NCBI GenBank assembly: GCA_003151615.1
Contig: PLXZ01000001.1
Coordinates: 3,795 to 67,794, forward strand
Origin: Candidatus Tayloriibacteriota bacterium
GTDB lineage: Bacteria > Patescibacteriota > Minisyncoccia > Phycocordibacterales > PALSA-1337
Reading direction: 5' to 3'
DNA: 64,000 nucleotides
This document shows positions 1 through 42,063 of this stretch, in pieces. Position 1 is the first letter of the stretch; each line of letters begins with the position of its first letter. Made by a program: the position numbers and the translations under genes. The notes below the pieces were generated by a model. The model saw only the letters and a list, made by a program, of their open reading frames with translations. It was not told where the DNA came from and made no database searches.

Positions 1-1416
1 TTGACCGTAATTATCGCTTATTACCGCAGGAACAGAACTAACCGGCCCAAAATAAATCACCGACTGCGAATTTGCAAAGCCTTGAGATCCGTCGGCATTG
101 TTATAGAAGGTTCCGCCGGCATTATTCTTGTAGACATTTACACCCTGACTTCCCCCGTTTACCGTGACATTGAAAGTACCCGTAAGCAGAGACTCCTGCC
201 GTTTCGAATTATATGACAATTGCAGAGTCGGATAGTTGGCGACGGAAGCCGAAGCAGGCACGTTCGTAACGGGCGTTGAAGTTGCAATCGGAGCAGTTAT
301 CCAATTCGAATTGCCACAAGGGCCAATCGAGGATGTTCTCCATGCTGTATTATTTGCCATCGAATTCGAAAGCGCCGTCACTTTGCCGGCGGCGGTGGAC
401 CATGCAATACCCGTCAATTGAACGGCGCAGACATCCGCATTCGTTCCTGCGCTCAGGAATTGATATGTCACCGGAATGGTTACACTCTGATTCTGGGCGA
501 TAGTAAATGATGCGCCGTCACTCGAGAGCGTCGTATTCGACGGCTGTGAATAGCCTGCGACAAGATTAGGGCCGGAGATCACGGGTGCGCCGTCTCGATA
601 CACCTGAGCGAGATTCGTAGGCGTCGCTGAATTGCCGAAAGCAGGAGAAGTCGAATTAGGCAATCCAAGTGTTACATTCTGACCGATAGCCTGAACATTA
701 ACGTTGAAAGTAGCCCTATTTAGAATGACGCTGCTCGTAGCATTACCGAGAGGAGTTATATTTGTCGTCGTAATAGTCGGTGTTCCGGCAAGCGAAAACG
801 CGGGACCCGGGCCGGCGACGGTAATGGCATTTCCGTTTGCGGAACCGGTAAGCGCCGTAACTGCATTGTCTCTCGAATCGTATACGGCGAGATACCCTGC
901 CGCATTCGACATTGAAGCGGTTACAACCTCTTGCGAACCTGGCGTTGTCAGACCTGAGACGTCAACCTTAACCGTGAAAGGAACCGTCGTATTGATAGGA
1001 ATAGTTGCGCCTGCCGCATTGTCGCTGATCCGGAATGTAGCGACATTATTGACTACCGCGGACGACGCAATAGGCGTAGAGCCCTGATAGAGGTACGCGG
1101 CATTCACTGTTCCATTACCTGAAGGAAATATACTTACAAGAACATTGTGAAGATGAAGAGTGTCGCCCTGTGCATTAACGTCAAACACCAAAACTGGTAG
1201 ACCGAGATACTGGCCCTGTGCCGTGTTTGTTACCGGCACCGTATCTGAAAGAGGGCTTGATCCGTCGAGTGACAAAGTTGCTGAAGATGCCGAAACCGGA
1301 GTTATCGGAGTACATACCCAACCTGCCGGACAAACGACTGTCTGTGCGGAAGCCACAATCGGCGAAAATTGAAAGACGGCAAGTACGGAAAATGCTGAAA
1401 TAAGAAATCGTTTCAT
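1..1416 (-). CDS. Secreted cell-surface protein, partial (C-terminus beyond the window start). It is a paralog of the 9177-11135 gene. N-terminal signal peptide MKRFLISAFSVLAVFQFSPIVASA.
   Basis: I checked by hand that the reading frame is open across 1-1416 on the minus strand, with ATG at 1414-1416. It is absent from the ORF track because no stop lies in the window. It shares blocks with the 671-aa protein: QGQYLGLPV(L/M)VFDVNA(Q/N)GDTLHLH, AAYLYQGSTPI, PINTTVPFTVKVDVSGLT, and the C-terminal WST...AWRT motif. Confidence 0.75.
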   Translation of the reverse strand, partial: MKRFLISAFSVLAVFQFSPIVASAQTVVCPAGWVCTPITPVSASSATLSLDGSSPLSDTVPVTNTAQGQYLGLPVLVFDVNAQGDTLHLHNVLVSIFPSGNGTVNAAYLYQGSTPIASSAVVNNVATFRISDNAAGATIPINTTVPFTVKVDVSGLTTPGSQEVVTASMSNAAGYLAVYDSRDNAVTALTGSANGNAITVAGPGPAFSLAGTPTITTTNITPLGNATSSVILNRATFNVNVQAIGQNVTLGLPNSTSPAFGNSATPTNLAQVYRDGAPVISGPNLVAGYSQPSNTTLSSDGASFTIAQNQSVTIPVTYQFLSAGTNADVCAVQLTGIAWSTAAGKVTALSNSMANNTAWRTSSIGPCGNSNWITAPIATSTPVTNVPASASVANYPTLQLSYNSKRQESLLTGTFNVTVNGGSQGVNVYKNNAGGTFYNNADGSQGFANSQSVIYFGPVSSVPAVISDNYGQ

Positions 1417-3631: not shown

Positions 3632-6562
3632 TTATTGCGCCGTATCGACATCGTCGATAAACGCCTCGAATATATCCTCGAGTTTTTGTTTGCGGGTTGA
3701 ATCCAGATTTTTGAACACCCAATGCTGGTTCTGCAAATCGGCAATAGCCTTCTGCGCCCCGGCAATCGCCTGTTTGTTTGGATTCTTCACCTCTTTAATC
3801 GGCTTTTTCTTTCTCAAGCAATCAATGATGGAATCAAGTTTGTCATGCATCATTTTTTCCTTGTACGGAGAGAGACCGAGCGAAGAAACAATTGACTGAT
3901 ATGATTCCATGTCGAGAACCGGATCATATTCGTCGTGCGGGGTCGAGGTTGCGTCTGTCGTTCCGTCGCCATTGAAATCAAACAGCATCATTTGCGTTGT
4001 TGATGCCGTCGTCGAAGTCGCGGAAAACCGCGTCGTTGTCGCCAAAACAAGTTCGGCTTTCAAAAGCGGCGTCACCGGCATATCCGCGAACATCGTATTG
4101 GTCGCATCGACGCCGTTGACGTCATGCTCCGTATCAACTTCGAACGAACCCATTCCCGTTCCGGTAAATGTCACGCGATAATCCGTTCCGTACGGAACTC
4201 TGACATAGGTATCTTCGTCATTAGGAACGTAATCACTGCCCGGAATGCCCGTTTCAAACATCCCAAGATCCGATCCGGGAATGGGATTCGGTATTGGACC
4301 GGTATGATTACCCCTACTGTCGTAGACATTTAATTCGACGGGAGAATGGATCGAGATAACGAGAGCATCCTCGTGCACATCCGCCATGGTAGGAGCCCTG
4401 TTAGAAATATATGGCGGTAATGTTTCATCTTGGTCTCCCGGCGTAGAATTAGTCGATGACGCAACTAACTTTTCCTTCACGAATGCGACTCCTGAATCCG
4501 TGCTCAAGATATCAGCATGATCATCGCCAATGATTTTGCCTTTGCTTTCCGAGCCAAGATCGAAATAATAGTCGGACGAACTGGAAATCGCGGCCGCGGC
4601 GCTCTGCAATATCACGGTTCCGTCGCCAAAGATTGTCGTGGATGCCGAATGCTCAAGGGCATTTGTGCATGTCGGGGTTGTGCCAAAAAATACCGTCATG
4701 GCGCTGTCAGAGCAAACTTTTTTTGCATAGTAGGATATTCCGGAGAGCGTTGGATTGCCCCATCCCGCGAGAATGATTGCCTTGGTCGTCGAAGCGAACG
4801 AAAAAGTATCGATCGTATCGTGGATTTTTTGCGCAGCATCAATCATTGCGGTATGAAGAATTGCCGGCAAATCCGTATCGCCGGCGGACGGTTCGGCGCG
4901 GTGATCCGAAATACCCGTCAAAAAACTGCGCAAGGCGTCATAACCGGAAACCGTCTGTTTTTCGCCTGCCAAATTGAAGTCGGCAATCGCAGACGACGTA
5001 AACGAAACGATCGAACCGAACAGACTGCTCGTGGCGTTTGAAAAATATCCGCGCGACGGCAGCAATCCGTATCCGCCCGGCATATTGTCGCCAAGTTCCC
5101 GCGCAATGCCCTGCGTTGTTATTGCTCCTCCCAGAATGCTCTGATTATCGCCGTGAAGAAGTCCGGCAATCGCTTGCGGCGTGCCCAGTTGTGGCACTGC
5201 CACCAGAATCACTTTATCAAGCAAACCTGATTCGCCTTTGTCGGCGAGAGCTTTCGCCAAGACTTTTGCAACCAAGCCGCCATTGCTATGCGCGACAATG
5301 GTAACTTTTCCTGTTTTTGAAGTGGATGCGAGCGATTGAATTGTCTGAATCAATTTTTGCGAAACCGCTGCAGTGACGTCAAAGCGCCAGTCATAAGGAT
5401 ACGCCGTCCACGAATTGATAGTCTTGTCCGCAACCACGCCATTCATCATGGCGATAAAACCTTTATAAATCGGAAACAAGCCGAGAGCGCTGTCGATAAT
5501 ATCCTTCGTATATATTCCTGAATTGACGCTCTGCCCCGTCGGCGTCATGAAAAGCTTTTGCACGTCGGCGTTTCTGTTGGGTTCCCACAATTCATTCGTC
5601 GACGTTCCAAAGAGCGATTTTTGGTCAAGATAAAGCCTACTTGATTCGATACCGGGCAAGAACAAGACATTTGAACAGCATGCGGCCGATTGCGCGTGAA
5701 TTACCGTATCCTGCGTAAGCCATGGCGCATAATCGACGTTACCGAAAATCGCGGCGCCGGTCGCGCTCGCGGGCCCTGCCGAACTTCCCCACCAATTGTT
5801 TTCGGCACTGATCGGATTATCAATTGAATTATAAATGCCGTATAAACTATTGTTCGTGATTGAACTGCTTGAAATGACAATATTGTTCACAGCCGGAGGC
5901 GTCGGAATTGTCAGGGCATGCGCTATCTCCGGCGCAAAAAGTGCCCTAAAAAATCGGGACGCGAAACCTGCGCGGGGCGTGCCGAAAGTATTTTCAAAAG
6001 TGTTTCCAGGGGTGTTTACCGCCTGAAACACCGGCGGCGGCATGGGACGTGAATATATGCCGTACCTGTTTCCGGAAATGACACTGTCGGTGATAGTGAT
6101 TGAACTTCCCTGCGCGTCAACAGCCGTGTCAGCATCGGTTATGGTGGTCGAGGAAATCCAGACATTGCTTTGGGTAATGCCCAATCCCGTCGGCACGTCA
6201 ATATGCGCATTCGAAAATGTCGACGTCGCAAACGAAATCCAAAAACCCGTCAAATTATTCAGGATTACCGGCTGGCTCGCCGTTCCGTTTACGGATAAGG
6301 TTCCACCGACGGAAAGCGAACCGGGACTGGACGAAGACGTCGTGACAGTTACGCCCGGCCCAATCGAAAGAAAAACTCCGAACGGAATATAAATATCAGC
6401 GTCGAGAATATAGGGACTGCCCGTCTTGGTCCAACTCACAGTTTGGCCAAATGCCGTGTCGGCCGTGATATGCGTCTCGGCATGGACGACCGGGGCGATA
6501 AAAATAAACGTCGCAAAAACAACAGAAACAAAAACGCGAAAAAGATTCTTCATATGATGCAA
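3632..6562 (-). CDS. Secreted multidomain protein. It has a signal peptide, parallel beta-helix-like repeats (NNWWG), an LCAT/PGAP1-like alpha/beta-hydrolase lipase domain (PYDWR, GxSxG = AHSNGG), and a C-terminal DFNGDG-containing region.
   Basis: 976-aa ORF. N-terminus MHHMKNLFRVFVSVVFATFIFIAPVVHA. Motifs YPYDWRFDV and TIVAHSNGGLVAKVL match the LCAT-like phospholipase/acyltransferase family. NRYGIYS and NNSLYGIYNS...NNWWG are beta-helix-like. Confidence 0.7.
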   Translation of the reverse strand: MHHMKNLFRVFVSVVFATFIFIAPVVHAETHITADTAFGQTVSWTKTGSPYILDADIYIPFGVFLSIGPGVTVTTSSSSPGSLSVGGTLSVNGTASQPVILNNLTGFWISFATSTFSNAHIDVPTGLGITQSNVWISSTTITDADTAVDAQGSSITITDSVISGNRYGIYSRPMPPPVFQAVNTPGNTFENTFGTPRAGFASRFFRALFAPEIAHALTIPTPPAVNNIVISSSSITNNSLYGIYNSIDNPISAENNWWGSSAGPASATGAAIFGNVDYAPWLTQDTVIHAQSAACCSNVLFLPGIESSRLYLDQKSLFGTSTNELWEPNRNADVQKLFMTPTGQSVNSGIYTKDIIDSALGLFPIYKGFIAMMNGVVADKTINSWTAYPYDWRFDVTAAVSQKLIQTIQSLASTSKTGKVTIVAHSNGGLVAKVLAKALADKGESGLLDKVILVAVPQLGTPQAIAGLLHGDNQSILGGAITTQGIARELGDNMPGGYGLLPSRGYFSNATSSLFGSIVSFTSSAIADFNLAGEKQTVSGYDALRSFLTGISDHRAEPSAGDTDLPAILHTAMIDAAQKIHDTIDTFSFASTTKAIILAGWGNPTLSGISYYAKKVCSDSAMTVFFGTTPTCTNALEHSASTTIFGDGTVILQSAAAAISSSSDYYFDLGSESKGKIIGDDHADILSTDSGVAFVKEKLVASSTNSTPGDQDETLPPYISNRAPTMADVHEDALVISIHSPVELNVYDSRGNHTGPIPNPIPGSDLGMFETGIPGSDYVPNDEDTYVRVPYGTDYRVTFTGTGMGSFEVDTEHDVNGVDATNTMFADMPVTPLLKAELVLATTTRFSATSTTASTTQMMLFDFNGDGTTDATSTPHDEYDPVLDMESYQSIVSSLGLSPYKEKMMHDKLDSIIDCLRKKKPIKEVKNPNKQAIAGAQKAIADLQNQHWVFKNLDSTRKQKLEDIFEAFIDDVDTAQ

Positions 6563-37433: not shown

Positions 37434-38669
37434 TTAGCCCCGCAAAATCGAATCTATTTTTTTGGCCAGTTTGACGAAGTCTTTTTCAAGTTTCCCGCGC
37501 GTCGTTTCTGCGGCGGAACCGAGGCGAATACCGGATGGGTCGGTCGGAGGGCGCTTGTCAAAAGGAATTGCATTTTTATTGACGATGATGCCGGCTTTTT
37601 CCAATTTATCACTCGCCTCCTTGCCTGAAACCGCGCCGGCTCCCTTCGCATTTTTCTGACCGTTCATCCATGTGTCAACGAGAACCAAATGCGAATCCGT
37701 TCCGCCGGAAATGATTTTCCACCCGCGTTTCGTCAATTCGCCGGCAAGAGCCGTAGCATTTTTCTTGACCTGTTTCGCATATTTTTTGAAAGCCGGAGCG
37801 GCTGCTTCTTTCAAAGCCACCGCGACAGCGGCAATTTGATTGATGTGAGGACCGCCCTGGAGACCAGGAAAAACAGCCTTGTCGATTTTTGATGAAATCG
37901 AAACCGGACCATTGGTGCCATCGACATGCCGGTCGAGCCGGCTGAAAATCATAGCCGCGCGCGGACCGCGCAGTGTTTTGTGGACCGTTGTCGTGACGAT
38001 ATCAGCATATTCAAAAGGCGACGGATATTCCTTCCCCGCAACGAGTCCGGCAAAGTGCGACATATCCACCATCAAAAGCGCGGACTGACCCGTTTCATTT
38101 TTCGCCGCGTCGGCAATGTCGCGGAATTTTTTGAAATCAATGGCGCGCGGATATGCCGTAAATCCGGCGACAATGATGACCGGTTTCTCCCGCATCGCAA
38201 TTTCGCGCAATTCCCCGTAATTGAGCTGCTCCAATTTCGCATCAACACCATATGGAACCTGAACCCAGAATTTTCCGGTAGCGGAAACTTTGTGACCGTG
38301 GGTCAAATGACCTCCATGGTCGAGCGACATGCCCATGATTTTTCCTCCGGGCGGAACGAGTGCTGTGTAAACGGCCAAGTTGGCCGGCGAACCCGACAAA
38401 GGCTGCACATTCACATGCCATTTATCAGCCGACAAACCGAAAGCTTTCAATGCACGCTCAATCGCCAACATCTCGATTTTATCCACCACTTCATTGCCGC
38501 CATAGTAGCGCTTGCCCGCATACCCTTCCGCATATTTATTCGTCAGTTCCGAGCCGAGCGCATCCAAAACATCCTGCGACACATAGTTTTCCGACGCAAT
38601 CAGATTCACGACTTTTTTCTGCCGCTTTTTCTCCGCATCAATCAGTTTTTTAATGGCGGCGTCTTTCAT
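37434..38669 (-). CDS. glyA: Serine hydroxymethyltransferase.
   Basis: IASENYVS...LTNKYAEGY...GGHLTHGHKVS is the SHMT signature. Confidence 0.95.
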   Translation of the reverse strand: MKDAAIKKLIDAEKKRQKKVVNLIASENYVSQDVLDALGSELTNKYAEGYAGKRYYGGNEVVDKIEMLAIERALKAFGLSADKWHVNVQPLSGSPANLAVYTALVPPGGKIMGMSLDHGGHLTHGHKVSATGKFWVQVPYGVDAKLEQLNYGELREIAMREKPVIIVAGFTAYPRAIDFKKFRDIADAAKNETGQSALLMVDMSHFAGLVAGKEYPSPFEYADIVTTTVHKTLRGPRAAMIFSRLDRHVDGTNGPVSISSKIDKAVFPGLQGGPHINQIAAVAVALKEAAAPAFKKYAKQVKKNATALAGELTKRGWKIISGGTDSHLVLVDTWMNGQKNAKGAGAVSGKEASDKLEKAGIIVNKNAIPFDKRPPTDPSGIRLGSAAETTRGKLEKDFVKLAKKIDSILRG

Positions 38670-39633
38670 GTGAATAGCTTATCATATTTTTAATCTTGAA
38701 AGTATTTCCGTGCGTTAACATACCCAAATAAGATGCAACAGTTTCTATCTTAGGCTGATGATCAAGATTCTTAAACATTCTCTTCTTTGTAGCCGTTCTT
38801 AGAACTCTATGGTCAGGAAAATGTATCCACCCAAGGAAATCGACACCTGACGAGAACGTTTTAATGAAAACTTTATCGGGATGAAGTTTCAGGGCCAGTT
38901 TTTCTTCCAAAAATAGTGACATTTTCGGCAATATATCGAGAAGCCAATCCTTGTTCCCGCTCATCACCACAAAATCATCGGCGTATCGGATATAGTATTT
39001 TGCTTTAATCGTGTGCTTCATAAAATGGTCAAAAGCATTCATGTAGACGTTAACCAGAAGCTGCGAGGTGAGATTGCCAAGCGGTAATCCCTTTCCGTCT
39101 ACTGTACTGTGGAAACTTTTAGCCACACGTCCGATAAGCCAAATGACATCAGGATCGGTAATGTACTTTCCTACAGTATCAAGGAGTATTTTTTGATCGA
39201 TTGAAGCAAAAAACTTCCGAATATCGCACTTTAAAATCCAAAGCGTCTTTGTGTTATTCTTGCTCTCCTTTAAAGCAAAATGCTTGAATCGTTCCACTGC
39301 TCGATGTGTACCCCGTAGCTTACGGCATGAGTATGAATCATAAATAAAAGTGCGGTCAAAAAAAGGATAAAGTTCGCGATAGATTGCATGATGCAAAAGT
39401 CTGTCTCGCACACTTGCCTTATGGATATTTCGTGGCTTTGGATCAGAGATATTAAAGGCATAGTAGCCTCCATGGGTATAAGTTTTATTTTTTAAATCAG
39501 TATGTAAATCAAGAATGTTATCGGATAAACGATATTGAAACTCCTGCACATCTTTCTTGCTTCGCTTCCCTTTTAGGAATTCTTTCCACGCTTCGAGCAA
39601 ATTTTCCATAGAAATGATATTGTTGTACATCAT
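38650..39633 (-). CDS. DGR reverse transcriptase.
   Basis: RT motifs PKPRNIHKASVRDR and YADDFVV. Motif 4 is GLPLGNLTSQLLVNVYM; the xGxxxSQ form is diagnostic of DGR RTs, where group II and retron RTs have QGxxxSP. Length is 327 aa. The 3' end overlaps the glyA start by 20 nt. Confidence 0.85.
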   Translation of the reverse strand: MMYNNIISMENLLEAWKEFLKGKRSKKDVQEFQYRLSDNILDLHTDLKNKTYTHGGYYAFNISDPKPRNIHKASVRDRLLHHAIYRELYPFFDRTFIYDSYSCRKLRGTHRAVERFKHFALKESKNNTKTLWILKCDIRKFFASIDQKILLDTVGKYITDPDVIWLIGRVAKSFHSTVDGKGLPLGNLTSQLLVNVYMNAFDHFMKHTIKAKYYIRYADDFVVMSGNKDWLLDILPKMSLFLEEKLALKLHPDKVFIKTFSSGVDFLGWIHFPDHRVLRTATKKRMFKNLDHQPKIETVASYLGMLTHGNTFKIKNMISYSHERRRH

Positions 39634-39696
39634 GATTGATACAAAAATTAAGACTGATAAAGTAGCCCCCCCCCGCAGAGATTAATACCTGTTGTT

Positions 39697-40047
39697 TTGA
39701 AGCTCAAGGACACCTATGCCATATGGCAGGACTATTTAACCCATTTTCCCAAAGCTAACCGTTTTACGATTGGTTCAAAGATAGATATCCTCTTCCTCGA
39801 AGCGATCGAATACGCTTTCATCGCAAGCTATACCCATACGGCCGACAAGCATATATTCTTAAATAAAAGCATCTCTAAAGTGGATCTCATTAAGCTCCTT
39901 CTACAACTTTCGTGGGAGATAAAAGCACTCGATAACAAGAAATATATCGTGCTGTCAGAAAAATTCTCTGAAATCGGTAAGATGCTTGGAGGCTGGAAAA
40001 AGCAATTACTTAGCAAAACTCCTGAGACAAAATCTCAGGAGAAATAA
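39697..40047 (+). CDS. avd: Avd-like accessory variability determinant (four-helix-bundle / 23S rRNA intervening-sequence protein family). TTG start.
   Basis: 116 aa and basic. HFPKANRFTIGSKIDILFLEAIEYAFIASY...EIGKMLGGW resembles the Avd/TIGR02436 pattern (FPKEERYGL.SQLRRAA.S...NIAEG...L.GL). It lies between RT and TR but on the opposite strand. Confidence 0.7.
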   Translation: MKLKDTYAIWQDYLTHFPKANRFTIGSKIDILFLEAIEYAFIASYTHTADKHIFLNKSISKVDLIKLLLQLSWEIKALDNKKYIVLSEKFSEIGKMLGGWKKQLLSKTPETKSQEK

Positions 40048-40055
40048 TGATAGTG

Positions 40056-40181
40056 GCGAACAGCCAGGAAACGATAGTTGGCATTCCAATCACCGTCCCA
40101 GTTGTTGAGGTTGAGGTTCCGCTTGGAATCGTCCTTGTTGAGGTTCGGCACGTTGCGGTTGCCATTGACCTTACCAACGGA
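40056..40181 (-). repeat. DGR template repeat (TR): 126 nt, 33 adenines, AAC/AAT Asn-codon rich.
   Basis: Identical to VR except at TR-adenine positions. In-frame translation gives ...NGNRNVPNLNKDDSKRNLNLNNWDGDWNANYRFLAVR. Confidence 0.88.
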
Positions 40182-40420
40182 CCTTGTGTGAAAAACCACC
40201 CATGGCACTGCTCCCCGATAGCTTCGCGAAAGCTGCATCGAATTCGTGACATTAATCTATCACTTGGTTTCTCACACCAACTGTCTCTCTATTTTTTGAG
40301 ATCAATCCTCGAAATACTCTTTGGAAAACCTTGGTCTTCCAAACTCTCATTCCGAGGGTTGCGGACAAATTACCCAAAGCCGTGACCTTGGATTTATCAC
40401 TTGTCACTTTTCATTATATA

Positions 40421-40466
40421 TGAAAATAAAAAACCTCGCGCGACACAACTTGTGTACAACGCGAGG
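40421..40466 (-). terminator. Nested GC hairpin plus T-tract downstream of the DGR target gene. Terminator and candidate DGR target-recognition stem-loop.
   Basis: cctcgcg-[acacaa-c-ttgtgt]-cgcgagg. On the minus strand it is followed by TTTTTTATTTT. Confidence 0.6.
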
Positions 40467-40529
40467 TCTGAATTTGATGCGACCAAGGGTCCAAGATTCC
40501 AAGTGGCAAAGCGCAAGCGATGCCGATGA

Positions 40530-41288
40530 TCAAGAAACCGAGATCTGAGAGACTTTTTTGCGAACAGCCAGGAAACGATAGCTGGCACCCCAACCACCGT
40601 CCCAGCGGATGAGGTCGAGGTCCCGCCCGGAAACGCCCTCGTAGAGGTAAGGCACGTGGCGGCCGAGGCGGAGGTGCCGCTCGGAAACGTCCTTGTTGAG
40701 GTACGGCACGCAGCGGAAGCCATAGACCTTACCAACGGAGCCCAACGCAACGATCGGATACTTCCGCTGTTCTTCAGGGTTATTTTTCCCGTAAGTCAGC
40801 AGATGCTCGATCGCGGCCGGTTGCCATGGATTGGCAGTATCGTCGGTTGTAATGCCACTGACGGCATTTTCCGACGAGATGGAGCGATCGAAATGGAACA
40901 TTTTAAATTCCCACTCGTCCGCGCCGGTGTTCTTCAATGGAAATCGCTTCGCAGTGATGTCGCTGTTAGTCCAGTCGTAATTGCCGGCCTTGATCATCTC
41001 TTCGAGAGACAAGGTGCAGTCTACGACATAGACCACGATTGCGCCGACGACGGCATTGACAGTGTTCGTCACCCAGCAGGGCTCCTTGCGCAGAAATTTT
41101 TTGAGCATTTCCCACCAGGTGTTTCCGTCCTTGCCGTTCAATTTGGCGAAGAGGTCCTTGAGGACGCCGATTGCGGATTGGGCTTCTTCATTGACAATCT
41201 GGTCGAGTGATTCGAGCAGATTCAGTAACAGTCCGAGCATGATTTTCATGGTCAGTTTCCTTTCATCGCCGACTTTAGAAGTCAGCAT
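40530..41288 (-). CDS. DGR target (variable) protein with a C-terminal VR in a C-type-lectin/FGE-like context (...GFRCVPYL...WDGGWGASYRFLAVR).
   Basis: 252-aa ORF. VR is at 40559-40738. The start may be the internal MKIML at 41249. Confidence 0.8.
   Translation of the reverse strand: MLTSKVGDERKLTMKIMLGLLLNLLESLDQIVNEEAQSAIGVLKDLFAKLNGKDGNTWWEMLKKFLRKEPCWVTNTVNAVVGAIVVYVVDCTLSLEEMIKAGNYDWTNSDITAKRFPLKNTGADEWEFKMFHFDRSISSENAVSGITTDDTANPWQPAAIEHLLTYGKNNPEEQRKYPIVALGSVGKVYGFRCVPYLNKDVSERHLRLGRHVPYLYEGVSGRDLDLIRWDGGWGASYRFLAVRKKVSQISVS
40559..40738 (-). repeat. DGR variable repeat (VR): 180 nt, equal to TR plus a 54-nt internal tandem duplication.
   Basis: About 31 substitutions against TR at TR-A sites, and one elsewhere (ccg to cct). 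Confidence 0.88.
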
Positions 41289-41325
41289 TTGTTTTTTGTT
41301 GAGCTAGAGGGCTACCTTATCGCCA

Positions 41326-41385
41326 TAGCTTAGAGACGCCCATCTTTTTGAGCAGCTTTAAGCTATGGCGATCGTTCGCAAAATC
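41326..41385. promoter_or_regulatory. 14-bp perfect inverted repeat (atcgccatagctta ... taagctatggcgat) with a ~29-nt spacer, upstream of the DGR target gene.
   Basis: Seen directly in the sequence. Function unknown; it could be an operator or a 5'-UTR structure. Confidence 0.35.
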
Positions 41386-41439
41386 AAAGAACTTACAGGT
41401 GTATTGTACACCATTAGTATGGCATCTGTCAATGGTAAG

Positions 41440-41470
41440 AAAAAAGCCCTTAATGAAGGGCTTTTTTGAT
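41440..41470 (-). terminator. Bidirectional rho-independent terminator after rplE.
   Basis: aaaaaagcccttaatgaagggcttttttg. Confidence 0.7.
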
Positions 41471-41490
41471 TAAAAACGCTTTTTTATAGT

Positions 41491-42063
41491 CTATTTCGCC
41501 TTTCCTGCCTTCACCTCTTCTTTCTTGAACGGAAAACCGAGATGTTCCAAAAATGCGAGTGTCTGAACCTTGTCGTTTGATGAAGTCACGACCGTGAGAG
41601 CCATTCCGAAAACATCGCGGAGATCTTCGTCTGATGTTTCAGCGAAAATGGTGTGCTCGCGGATGCCGAGGGTGTAATTGCCCATTTCGTCGACTGCGGT
41701 TCGCGTTATGCCGCGGAAGTCCTTTGTGCGGGGCAATGAAATGTGGACAAGCCGGTCAAGAAAATCATTCATGCGTTTGCCGCGGAGGGTTATCTGGAAA
41801 CCAACAGGGTCGCCGGTGCGGACCTTGAATGTTGCGATCGATTTCTTCGCGCCGCGAAGAGCAGGCTTTTGGCCCGTGATTTTCGCCAATCGGTCTGCGA
41901 CGAGTTCGATTTTCTTTTTGTCCTTGATCGAGCCGATACCCGCGGAAACGACGACTTTCAAAAGTCGAGGCGACTGCATTGGATTTGTATAGCCGAATTT
42001 CGGCTGAAGCGTTTTGTATGCGCTCTTTTCCAAATCTTTGATTGTTGTGTGTGATGTTTTCAT
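41491..42063 (-). CDS. rplE: 50S ribosomal protein L5.
   Basis: Typical L5 sequence (LLKVVVSAGIG...GAKKSIATFKVRTGDPVG). Confidence 0.93.
   Translation of the reverse strand: MKTSHTTIKDLEKSAYKTLQPKFGYTNPMQSPRLLKVVVSAGIGSIKDKKKIELVADRLAKITGQKPALRGAKKSIATFKVRTGDPVGFQITLRGKRMNDFLDRLVHISLPRTKDFRGITRTAVDEMGNYTLGIREHTIFAETSDEDLRDVFGMALTVVTSSNDKVQTLAFLEHLGFPFKKEEVKAGKAK

Follow-up and report, generated by a model that had tools for sequence, protein, structure and literature searches.

A 54-nt tandem duplication in the VR of a CPR DGR, with copies that differ at TR adenines, as a possible product of mutagenic retrohoming

Among the systems closest to the locus reported here are the canonical C-type-lectin-fold DGRs, such as BPP-1 Mtd, Treponema TvpA and the DGRs of CPR bacteria. 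These elements combine a bRT-related reverse transcriptase (RT), an Avd protein, a VR at the C-terminal end of a C-type-lectin-fold (CLec-fold) domain, and a TR/VR pair related by adenine substitutions. The present locus shares all of these features, with 30 of its 31 TR/VR mismatches at TR adenines. Unlike the canonical DGRs, it has avd on the opposite strand between TR and RT, it lacks a stable hairpin after VR, and its VR is longer than its TR.

Differences in length between TR and VR have been described before. Wu et al. 2018 (NAR 46:11, PMC5758913) report such differences in 25 of 372 DGRs (7%), find 74% of the indels next to AAC, and attribute them to RT slippage. In the BPP-1 system, according to Guo et al. 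2011 (PMC3240598), identity of at least 8 bp is all that 5′ cDNA integration requires, cryptic sites are used in truncated VRs, and 36-bp inserts in TR are transferred to VR; in their words, integration ‘may occur via template switching’. The replacement of VR by DGR cDNA, and above all the joining of the upstream end, is unsettled, and the VR described here is the product that would be expected from a misregistered switch or a short-homology join.

The DGR itself is an ordinary CPR DGR. Its lengthened VR is a large and informative variant of the known TR/VR length-difference phenomenon, and not a new system. It is unusual in how large the change is and in its form, a long tandem re-copy, and also in the independent adenine substitutions that tie the change to reverse transcription or integration.

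The DGR locus and its surroundings

The window, meaning the whole stretch of 64,000 nt that was analysed, contains the following DGR features, given in window positions.

40530..41288, minus strand: DGR target gene, a 252-aa ORF with a helical N-terminal region and a C-terminal C-type-lectin-fold domain that ends in VR
40560..40739, minus strand: VR, 180 nt, aa 184-243, with 30/31 mismatches to TR at TR adenines
40716..40739, minus strand: 5′ segment of VR, corresponding to TR codons 1-8; 3/6 adenines changed, 0 other bases
40662..40715, minus strand: copy 1 of the 54-nt unit (TR codons 9-26), encoding RCVPYLNKDVSERHLRLG, aa 192-209; 10/18 adenines changed, 0 non-adenines
40608..40661, minus strand: copy 2 of the 54-nt unit, encoding RHVPYLYEGVSGRDLDLI, aa 210-227; 11/18 adenines changed, plus one G>T at 40650
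40659..40665, minus strand: junction zone, VR positions 75-81 (C GGC CGC), where split points x = 74-81 are equally good
40560..40607, minus strand: 3′ segment of VR, corresponding to TR codons 27-42; 6/9 adenines changed
40056..40181, minus strand: TR, 126 nt, with a single copy of the unit at 40104-40157 and CAAC microhomologies at 40158-40161 and 40104-40107
39697..40047, plus strand (opposite to target, TR and RT): accessory gene bAvd, 116 aa; Pfam PF22296 bAvd, E 7e-12, 46 bits against a cut-off of 40
38650..39633, minus strand: DGR RT, 327 aa; Pfam RVT_1, E 5e-24, with LGNLTSQ and YADD motifs read from the translation

The element is a canonical DGR that diversifies a small protein in its C-terminal C-type-lectin-fold domain. 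Homologues bear names such as Paceibacterota, Kaiserbacteria and Patescibacteria, so that its host is a CPR/Patescibacteria bacterium. It comprises an RT of the DGR clade, an adenine-confined TR/VR pair, an Avd-type accessory protein, and a target gene that encodes a C-type-lectin-fold variable domain and has the VR at its 3′ end. The best solved relative of the RT is 8ub7_A (a 328-aa reverse transcriptase, E 5e-40), which we take to be bRT; group II and retron RTs follow at ~1e-20. VR and TR are separated by a spacer of ~380 nt. The last 22 nt of VR (40560-40581) are identical to the end of TR (40056-40077), with homology ending directly after, as would be expected of an IMH-like block. Folding found no stable hairpin or cruciform downstream of VR (z = 0.13), a structure that is present in only 34% of DGRs (PMC5758913). 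Within the 64-kb window, no further TR-like copy was found.

The source of the locus is one metagenome assembly, ENA ERZ27254241, in which it lies on contig k141_1990104 (562,931 bp, with a MEGAHIT-style name). Look-ups of the exact target, RT, Avd and L5 sequences match this one contig, and a second assembly with any of them was not found.

The layout of the locus has further features. With the strand of avd inverted between TR and RT, a transcript running from TR to RT would have antisense avd as its ‘spacer’, and the same inverted layout is seen in the closest GTDB relative, L003 (avd 5118-5606, minus strand). A perfect 9-bp hairpin, CUCCUGAGA-UUUUG-UCUCAGGAG, lies just 3′ of TR at ~40012-40034, within the 3′ end of avd. 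A 112-aa ORF antisense to TR (40047-40385, plus strand), which is annotated as a gene in ENA and overlaps TR and the spacer, has no Pfam hit on record and is probably spurious. Ribosomal genes are found on the minus strand in the order S19, L22, S3, L16, S17, L14, L24, L5, with the DGR cassette directly after L5, and SHMT and ArgRS come after the cassette (window positions 38650-42063). The usual continuation, S14/S8/L6 and so on, is not adjacent to L5, so that the DGR apparently sits at a break in the ribosomal gene cluster.

The 54-nt duplication and its junction

VR consists of TR 1-78 followed by TR 25-126, which amounts to an in-frame 54-nt tandem duplication and a 180-nt VR against a 126-nt TR. 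When VR is modelled as TR[1..x] + TR[x-53..126], values of x = 74-81 leave one non-adenine mismatch and 30-32 adenine mismatches, and values outside that range leave more non-adenine mismatches. With the split at x = 78, TR codons 9-26 form the repeated unit. An independent repeat search returned the same 54-nt offset, with 40611-40685 and 40665-40739 each matching 40107-40181. Modelling and repeat search therefore agree with the initial annotation, which had described a DGR VR with an extra 54 nt made up of a second copy of TR codons 9-26; the element was rightly recognised, although the range given for it, 40559-40738, is shifted by 1 nt from the correct 40560-40739. TR/VR mismatches are found at adenines in 30/31 cases (P ~ 8e-16), and the sole non-adenine change is the G>T at 40650 in copy 2, which converts CCG to CCT and is synonymous. 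Across the 180 nt, all non-adenine positions but one are kept, as is the reading frame.

The relation between the two copies bears directly on how they were made. They differ at 12 positions, 11 of which are TR adenines (P = 4.7e-5 for random placement, with 18 adenine sites in 54 positions); the copies had been annotated as differing at TR-adenine sites only, and this holds except for the synonymous G>T in copy 2. Because the differences are confined almost wholly to TR adenines, the idea that a finished VR was simply duplicated as DNA, without later homing, is rejected. The pattern supports the view that at least one copy was written independently by adenine-mutagenic reverse transcription. 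Identical substitutions are common to both copies at three adenine sites (unit positions 12, 28 and 33), and from the observed mutation frequency and spectrum we estimate ~2.5 shared substitutions for independent copying. The initial annotation had gone further on two counts. It attributed each copy to mutagenic reverse transcription, which stands in so far as at least one copy was independently written and simple DNA duplication is rejected. It also held that a DNA duplication after homing cannot give this pattern, which is true where no later homing occurred; a duplication followed by partial re-homing would fit as well, and so would a TR that was transiently duplicated, copied into VR in that state and then restored.

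The breakpoint can be placed anywhere in VR 75-81, which equals C-AAC-AAC (TR 75-81) and C-AAC-CGC (TR 21-27). At the 54-nt spacing, CAAC alone is common to both breakpoints (TR 21-24 and 75-78), so that the junction does lie at AAC codons as annotated. The annotated slip at ctc-AAC-ctc-AAC repeats, however, is not borne out by a junction whose breakpoints share only C-AAC. TR contains longer direct repeats (11 nt at a spacing of 33, 10 nt at 27 and 9 nt at 6), none of which was used, and DNA slippage would prefer such repeats of 9-11 nt as better substrates than CAAC. Their spacings match other length variants in the family, namely P0112 (+9 aa), P0062 (+2 aa), and P0057 and P0061 (-2 aa). 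An AAC breakpoint with minimal homology is consistent, as Wu et al. argue, with an RT whose primer end is already mismatched once adenines have been copied, and it also fits a short-homology 5′ integration. Folding gave no TR RNA structure that would juxtapose the two breakpoints, and the TR region is not unusually structured (z = -1.2).

One possible explanation for such a junction is an assembly or sequencing artefact, for example a chimera in the library, or a consensus pieced together as a mosaic where VR is hypervariable and the population mixed. The VRs of natural populations are heterogeneous and assemblers give mosaic paths there, and the locus is known from a single MEGAHIT contig. 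However, each junction-spanning 21-mer needs 1-4 non-adenine mismatches against any single-copy A>N allele, and junction-spanning 15-mers and 29-mers are likewise incompatible with such alleles. The junction sequence must therefore have existed in the sequenced DNA, and a de Bruijn chimera of single-copy alleles is rejected as its origin. Furthermore, the retention of the frame and of all but one non-adenine position over 180 nt is unexpected for a random chimera, and the 563-kb contig is continuous through the region. We consider an artefact very unlikely; if the junction lacked read support, an ordinary CPR DGR would be all that remains.

A second explanation is that two distinct VR alleles, each with a single copy, recombined unequally with a one-unit misalignment, whether they lay on sister chromosomes or in separate cells. 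This would likewise juxtapose two independently diversified units. In the misaligned register, however, the alleles would share only ~4-7 nt, which is far below what homologous recombination needs, and the exchange would thus be an illegitimate join without specific support. We regard this origin as highly improbable.

Length variants at other DGR loci

The target has ~320 homologues at E <= 0.001, and features were read from the 120 listed. Among these 120, length is mostly 200-220 aa, and a single unit, GSVGKV.G.R.VP.L....S.R.L.L.WW, is present in nearly all. A sample of 157 family loci, 155 of them from genome and metagenome collections, was searched locus by locus for adenine-biased repeat pairs. 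This yielded a TR/VR pair in 65 loci, with two diagonals (54 nt apart) only in the window's own locus. Sixty of the 65 pairs have no gap; their span is 122-143 nt in 58 cases, 185 nt in one, and 85 nt in L088, where the contig end cuts the pair short; L013, which is among the 60 gapless loci, shows only a 39-nt partial match. Four of the 64 other family loci (L003, L131, L150 and L050) have 1-nt indels beside adenines, and the remainder are of equal length. As the TR of the present locus is of family-typical length (122-143 nt for other family pairs), VR is the changed partner.

A wider sample comprised 254 DGR RT loci collected from IMG/VR via RT alignments, of which 153 distinct loci have a TR/VR pair. 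Gaps of 1-4 nt occur in 7/153 of these viral loci. Seven alignments with small length differences, from the family and viral sets together, were inspected, and in six of them the indel is at or beside adenines. In the ~210 other DGR loci where a TR/VR pair could be detected, no large TR/VR length difference was found; small differences (1-4 nt) occur in ~5%, in agreement with the 7% given by Wu et al. 2018 (PMC5758913). The comparison shows the duplication to be, on the evidence of these sequences, a derived and rare state. The length of this VR had been annotated as unusual, with related genomes as the place to look for VR length variants. That look bears the claim out for the 54-nt case, which is unmatched in the ~210 loci and set against nearly all of the 120 listed homologues being single-unit, but not for length differences as such, which are already published (PMC5758913).

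The small indels can be described individually. In the four family loci (L003, VR 4479-4617 against TR 4973-5112; L131, 4316-4452; L150, 287-414; L050, 4275-4404), single nucleotides are deleted or inserted exactly at or beside TR adenines. The deletion in L003 frameshifts its target, whose ORF is P0017 with an aberrant C-terminus, and L050 has an insertion followed by a compensating 1-nt deletion. Among the viral loci, L187 (1371-1479 / 1886-1997) and L225 (1059-1172 / 1612-1728) have a VR that lacks one AAC codon at an AAC position, and L222 (4610-4722 / 5171-5281) has three non-triplet indels in a single VR. All three belong to the published small-indel class.

Like the class described by Wu et al. 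2018, the present VR differs from its TR by a multiple of 3, its breakpoints adjoin TR AAC, its frame is kept, and the event is read as a register error of the RT. Unlike the small-indel class, it involves 54 nt (18 codons) against 1-4 nt in all other surveyed cases. It is also a tandem re-copy of a long, mostly non-repetitive segment, and not a local slip of a few nucleotides or codons inside a run of AAC repeats as in Wu et al. Finally, its two copies carry independent adenine substitutions, which set it apart from the same class and place its origin in reverse transcription or integration, not in DNA replication. A literature search found no description of a long, independently mutagenised VR re-copy, the ‘extreme example’ of Wu et al. 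(Fig. 4D) lying outside the comparison, and a search on tandem duplication in DGRs found nothing relevant.

The family does contain another duplicated VR. In P0112 (locus L001), VR has a 27-nt tandem duplication at 4545-4598 (RLDSKRDLH / RLDSKRDLG) that is bounded by AACCTCAAC-type repeats, the longer repeats bypassed in the present VR, and whose copies, identical at 25/27 positions, have the look of an undiversified DNA duplication. No TR, Avd or RT was found within 4 kb of this VR on its 315-kb contig, which makes it an orphan or remote-target VR. With no TR within that distance for a TR/VR comparison, P0112 was set aside as a second example of the same event and serves as a contrast only. 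Three other family proteins, P0067, P0118 and P0052, carry towards their ends a TR-like and Asn-rich sequence with hardly any mutation (NGNRNVPNLNKDGSKRNLNLNWWDNDWN is one such), and then an unrelated tail. Such proteins could be targets whose VR is undiversified, or ORFs running into TR.

Origin of the duplication and consequences for the target protein

We favor, with a probability of roughly 0.55, an origin of the 54-nt VR duplication in mutagenic retrohoming, by a misaligned template switch or 5′ integration at the C-AAC microhomology. The step at issue would be the extension or joining of adenine-mutagenised cDNA at its 5′-of-VR end; the timing of the event, at the cDNA or integration step, and the route taken are what we infer from the product. 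In one possible route, the RT, on reaching the AAC that precedes codon 9, would return 54 nt along the TR RNA to the AAC of codon 26, so that codons 9-26 are copied twice into one cDNA. In the other, a new cDNA made of the 3′ part and one unit would switch onto, or integrate into, the old VR with a shift of one unit, with the join at a C-NNC(-CGC) microhomology and the old VR unit kept as copy 1. Either route would produce, in one step, two independently adenine-substituted copies, an intact frame, an unchanged TR and an AAC junction, and the data fit both alike and cannot distinguish them. Retroviral reverse transcriptases offer a parallel, as their copy-choice and backward template switching at short homology give tandem duplications in cDNA; enzyme lineage and priming differ from those of DGRs, and the likeness is by analogy only.

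Retrohoming as the origin is supported by the presence of all DGR parts in intact form, by the adenine-biased mismatches and copy differences, by the single unit in nearly all of the 120 listed homologues, by the bypassing of the 9-11-nt repeats of TR for C-AAC, by the contrast with P0112, by the published AAC indels and BPP-1 integration results, and by the k-mers across the junction. Against it stand the single contig from a single MEGAHIT metagenome assembly, the lack of a replicate among ~210 other loci, a jump of 54 nt that is far beyond the surveyed indels of 1-4 nt, and TR RNA folding that brings the two sites no closer (z = -1.2). The microhomology is also short, with 4 nt in TR and at most 7 nt after mutagenesis, as compared with the at least 8 bp reported for BPP-1 integration (PMC3240598). 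In other respects the BPP-1 system is similar (PMC3240598), since there too VR can be joined upstream at sites that are not allelic and share a few bases, possibly by template switching, the 3′ end is IMH-anchored, and length changes can be written into VR. The BPP-1 experiments, however, used engineered truncated VRs and gave shortened products, whereas the VR described here is natural and full-length and has become one unit longer.

The copy pattern does not discriminate between retrohoming and two other histories, which it fits equally well. In the first, a DNA-level duplication would have arisen in TR and been copied to VR by ordinary homing of the 180-nt TR, after which TR collapsed by slippage or recombination, or the assembler collapsed a real two-copy TR. 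A transient duplication of this kind accounts equally for the independent adenine mutagenesis of both copies. It is also in line with the instability of perfect tandem repeats in TR, as opposed to the stability of diverged VR copies, and with the transfer of TR inserts to VR (PMC3240598). On the other hand, it requires two rare events, with a precise reversion, and the duplication in TR would have used the 4-nt CAAC despite the presence of 9-11-nt repeats. The length of TR is typical of the family, and a two-unit TR or VR is seen in no relative. Moreover, a 108-nt perfect tandem repeat in TR should be resolved at a MEGAHIT k of 141 (k inferred from the name k141_). We regard this history as unlikely.

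In the second, a finished VR would have been duplicated at the DNA level by replication slippage, and a later, partial homing would have overwritten copy 2 and the 3′ part, leaving copy 1 as it was. Both partial homing and integration at cryptic 5′ sites have been documented in BPP-1 (PMC3240598), and a VR duplication of the DNA type is known in the family (P0112). Here too, two events are required. The copies already differ at unit positions 3-4, so the re-homing must resolve in the same junction microhomology of at most 7 nt that the single-event reading uses; a full-length cDNA would be more likely to resolve in the 15-nt 5′ block, which would delete the duplication. The duplication of VR itself would again rest on a 4-nt microhomology only. 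This history appears distinctly unlikely.

The broader proposition, that DGR retrohoming can insert in one event a long in-frame tandem re-copy of its template with independently adenine-mutagenised copies, is put forward tentatively, at slightly less than even odds. If retrohoming is the true origin, this VR is a natural footprint of the template-switch or 5′-integration step, and DGRs would vary the length of a C-type-lectin binding loop as well as its residues, somewhat like CDR3 length variation. The TR, RT-Avd and junction described here provide a concrete, testable substrate for the joining step. Large re-copies would be split or missed by current DGR detection routines; myDGR (PMC6602519) uses a 60-bp gapless seed, and read re-alignment in PMC8144416 is limited to indels of ~3 nt.

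The consequence for the target protein can be considered on a predicted model. In this model, the first half of copy 1 makes up the strand at residues 191-200 and the second half of copy 2 the strand at 221-228, with the ~20 residues between the strands forming a low-confidence loop (low pLDDT at 201-220). An interpretation of this low pLDDT as real disorder was rejected, as the other 59 alignment rows are gapped there; low confidence in the loop is expected where no other row covers its residues. As modelled, the duplication would lengthen the variable hairpin of the CLec-fold domain (the VR beta-hairpin) by 18 residues at its tip. The extension appears to be tolerated, at least insofar as it has disrupted neither the frame nor the conserved C-terminal RFLAVR block.
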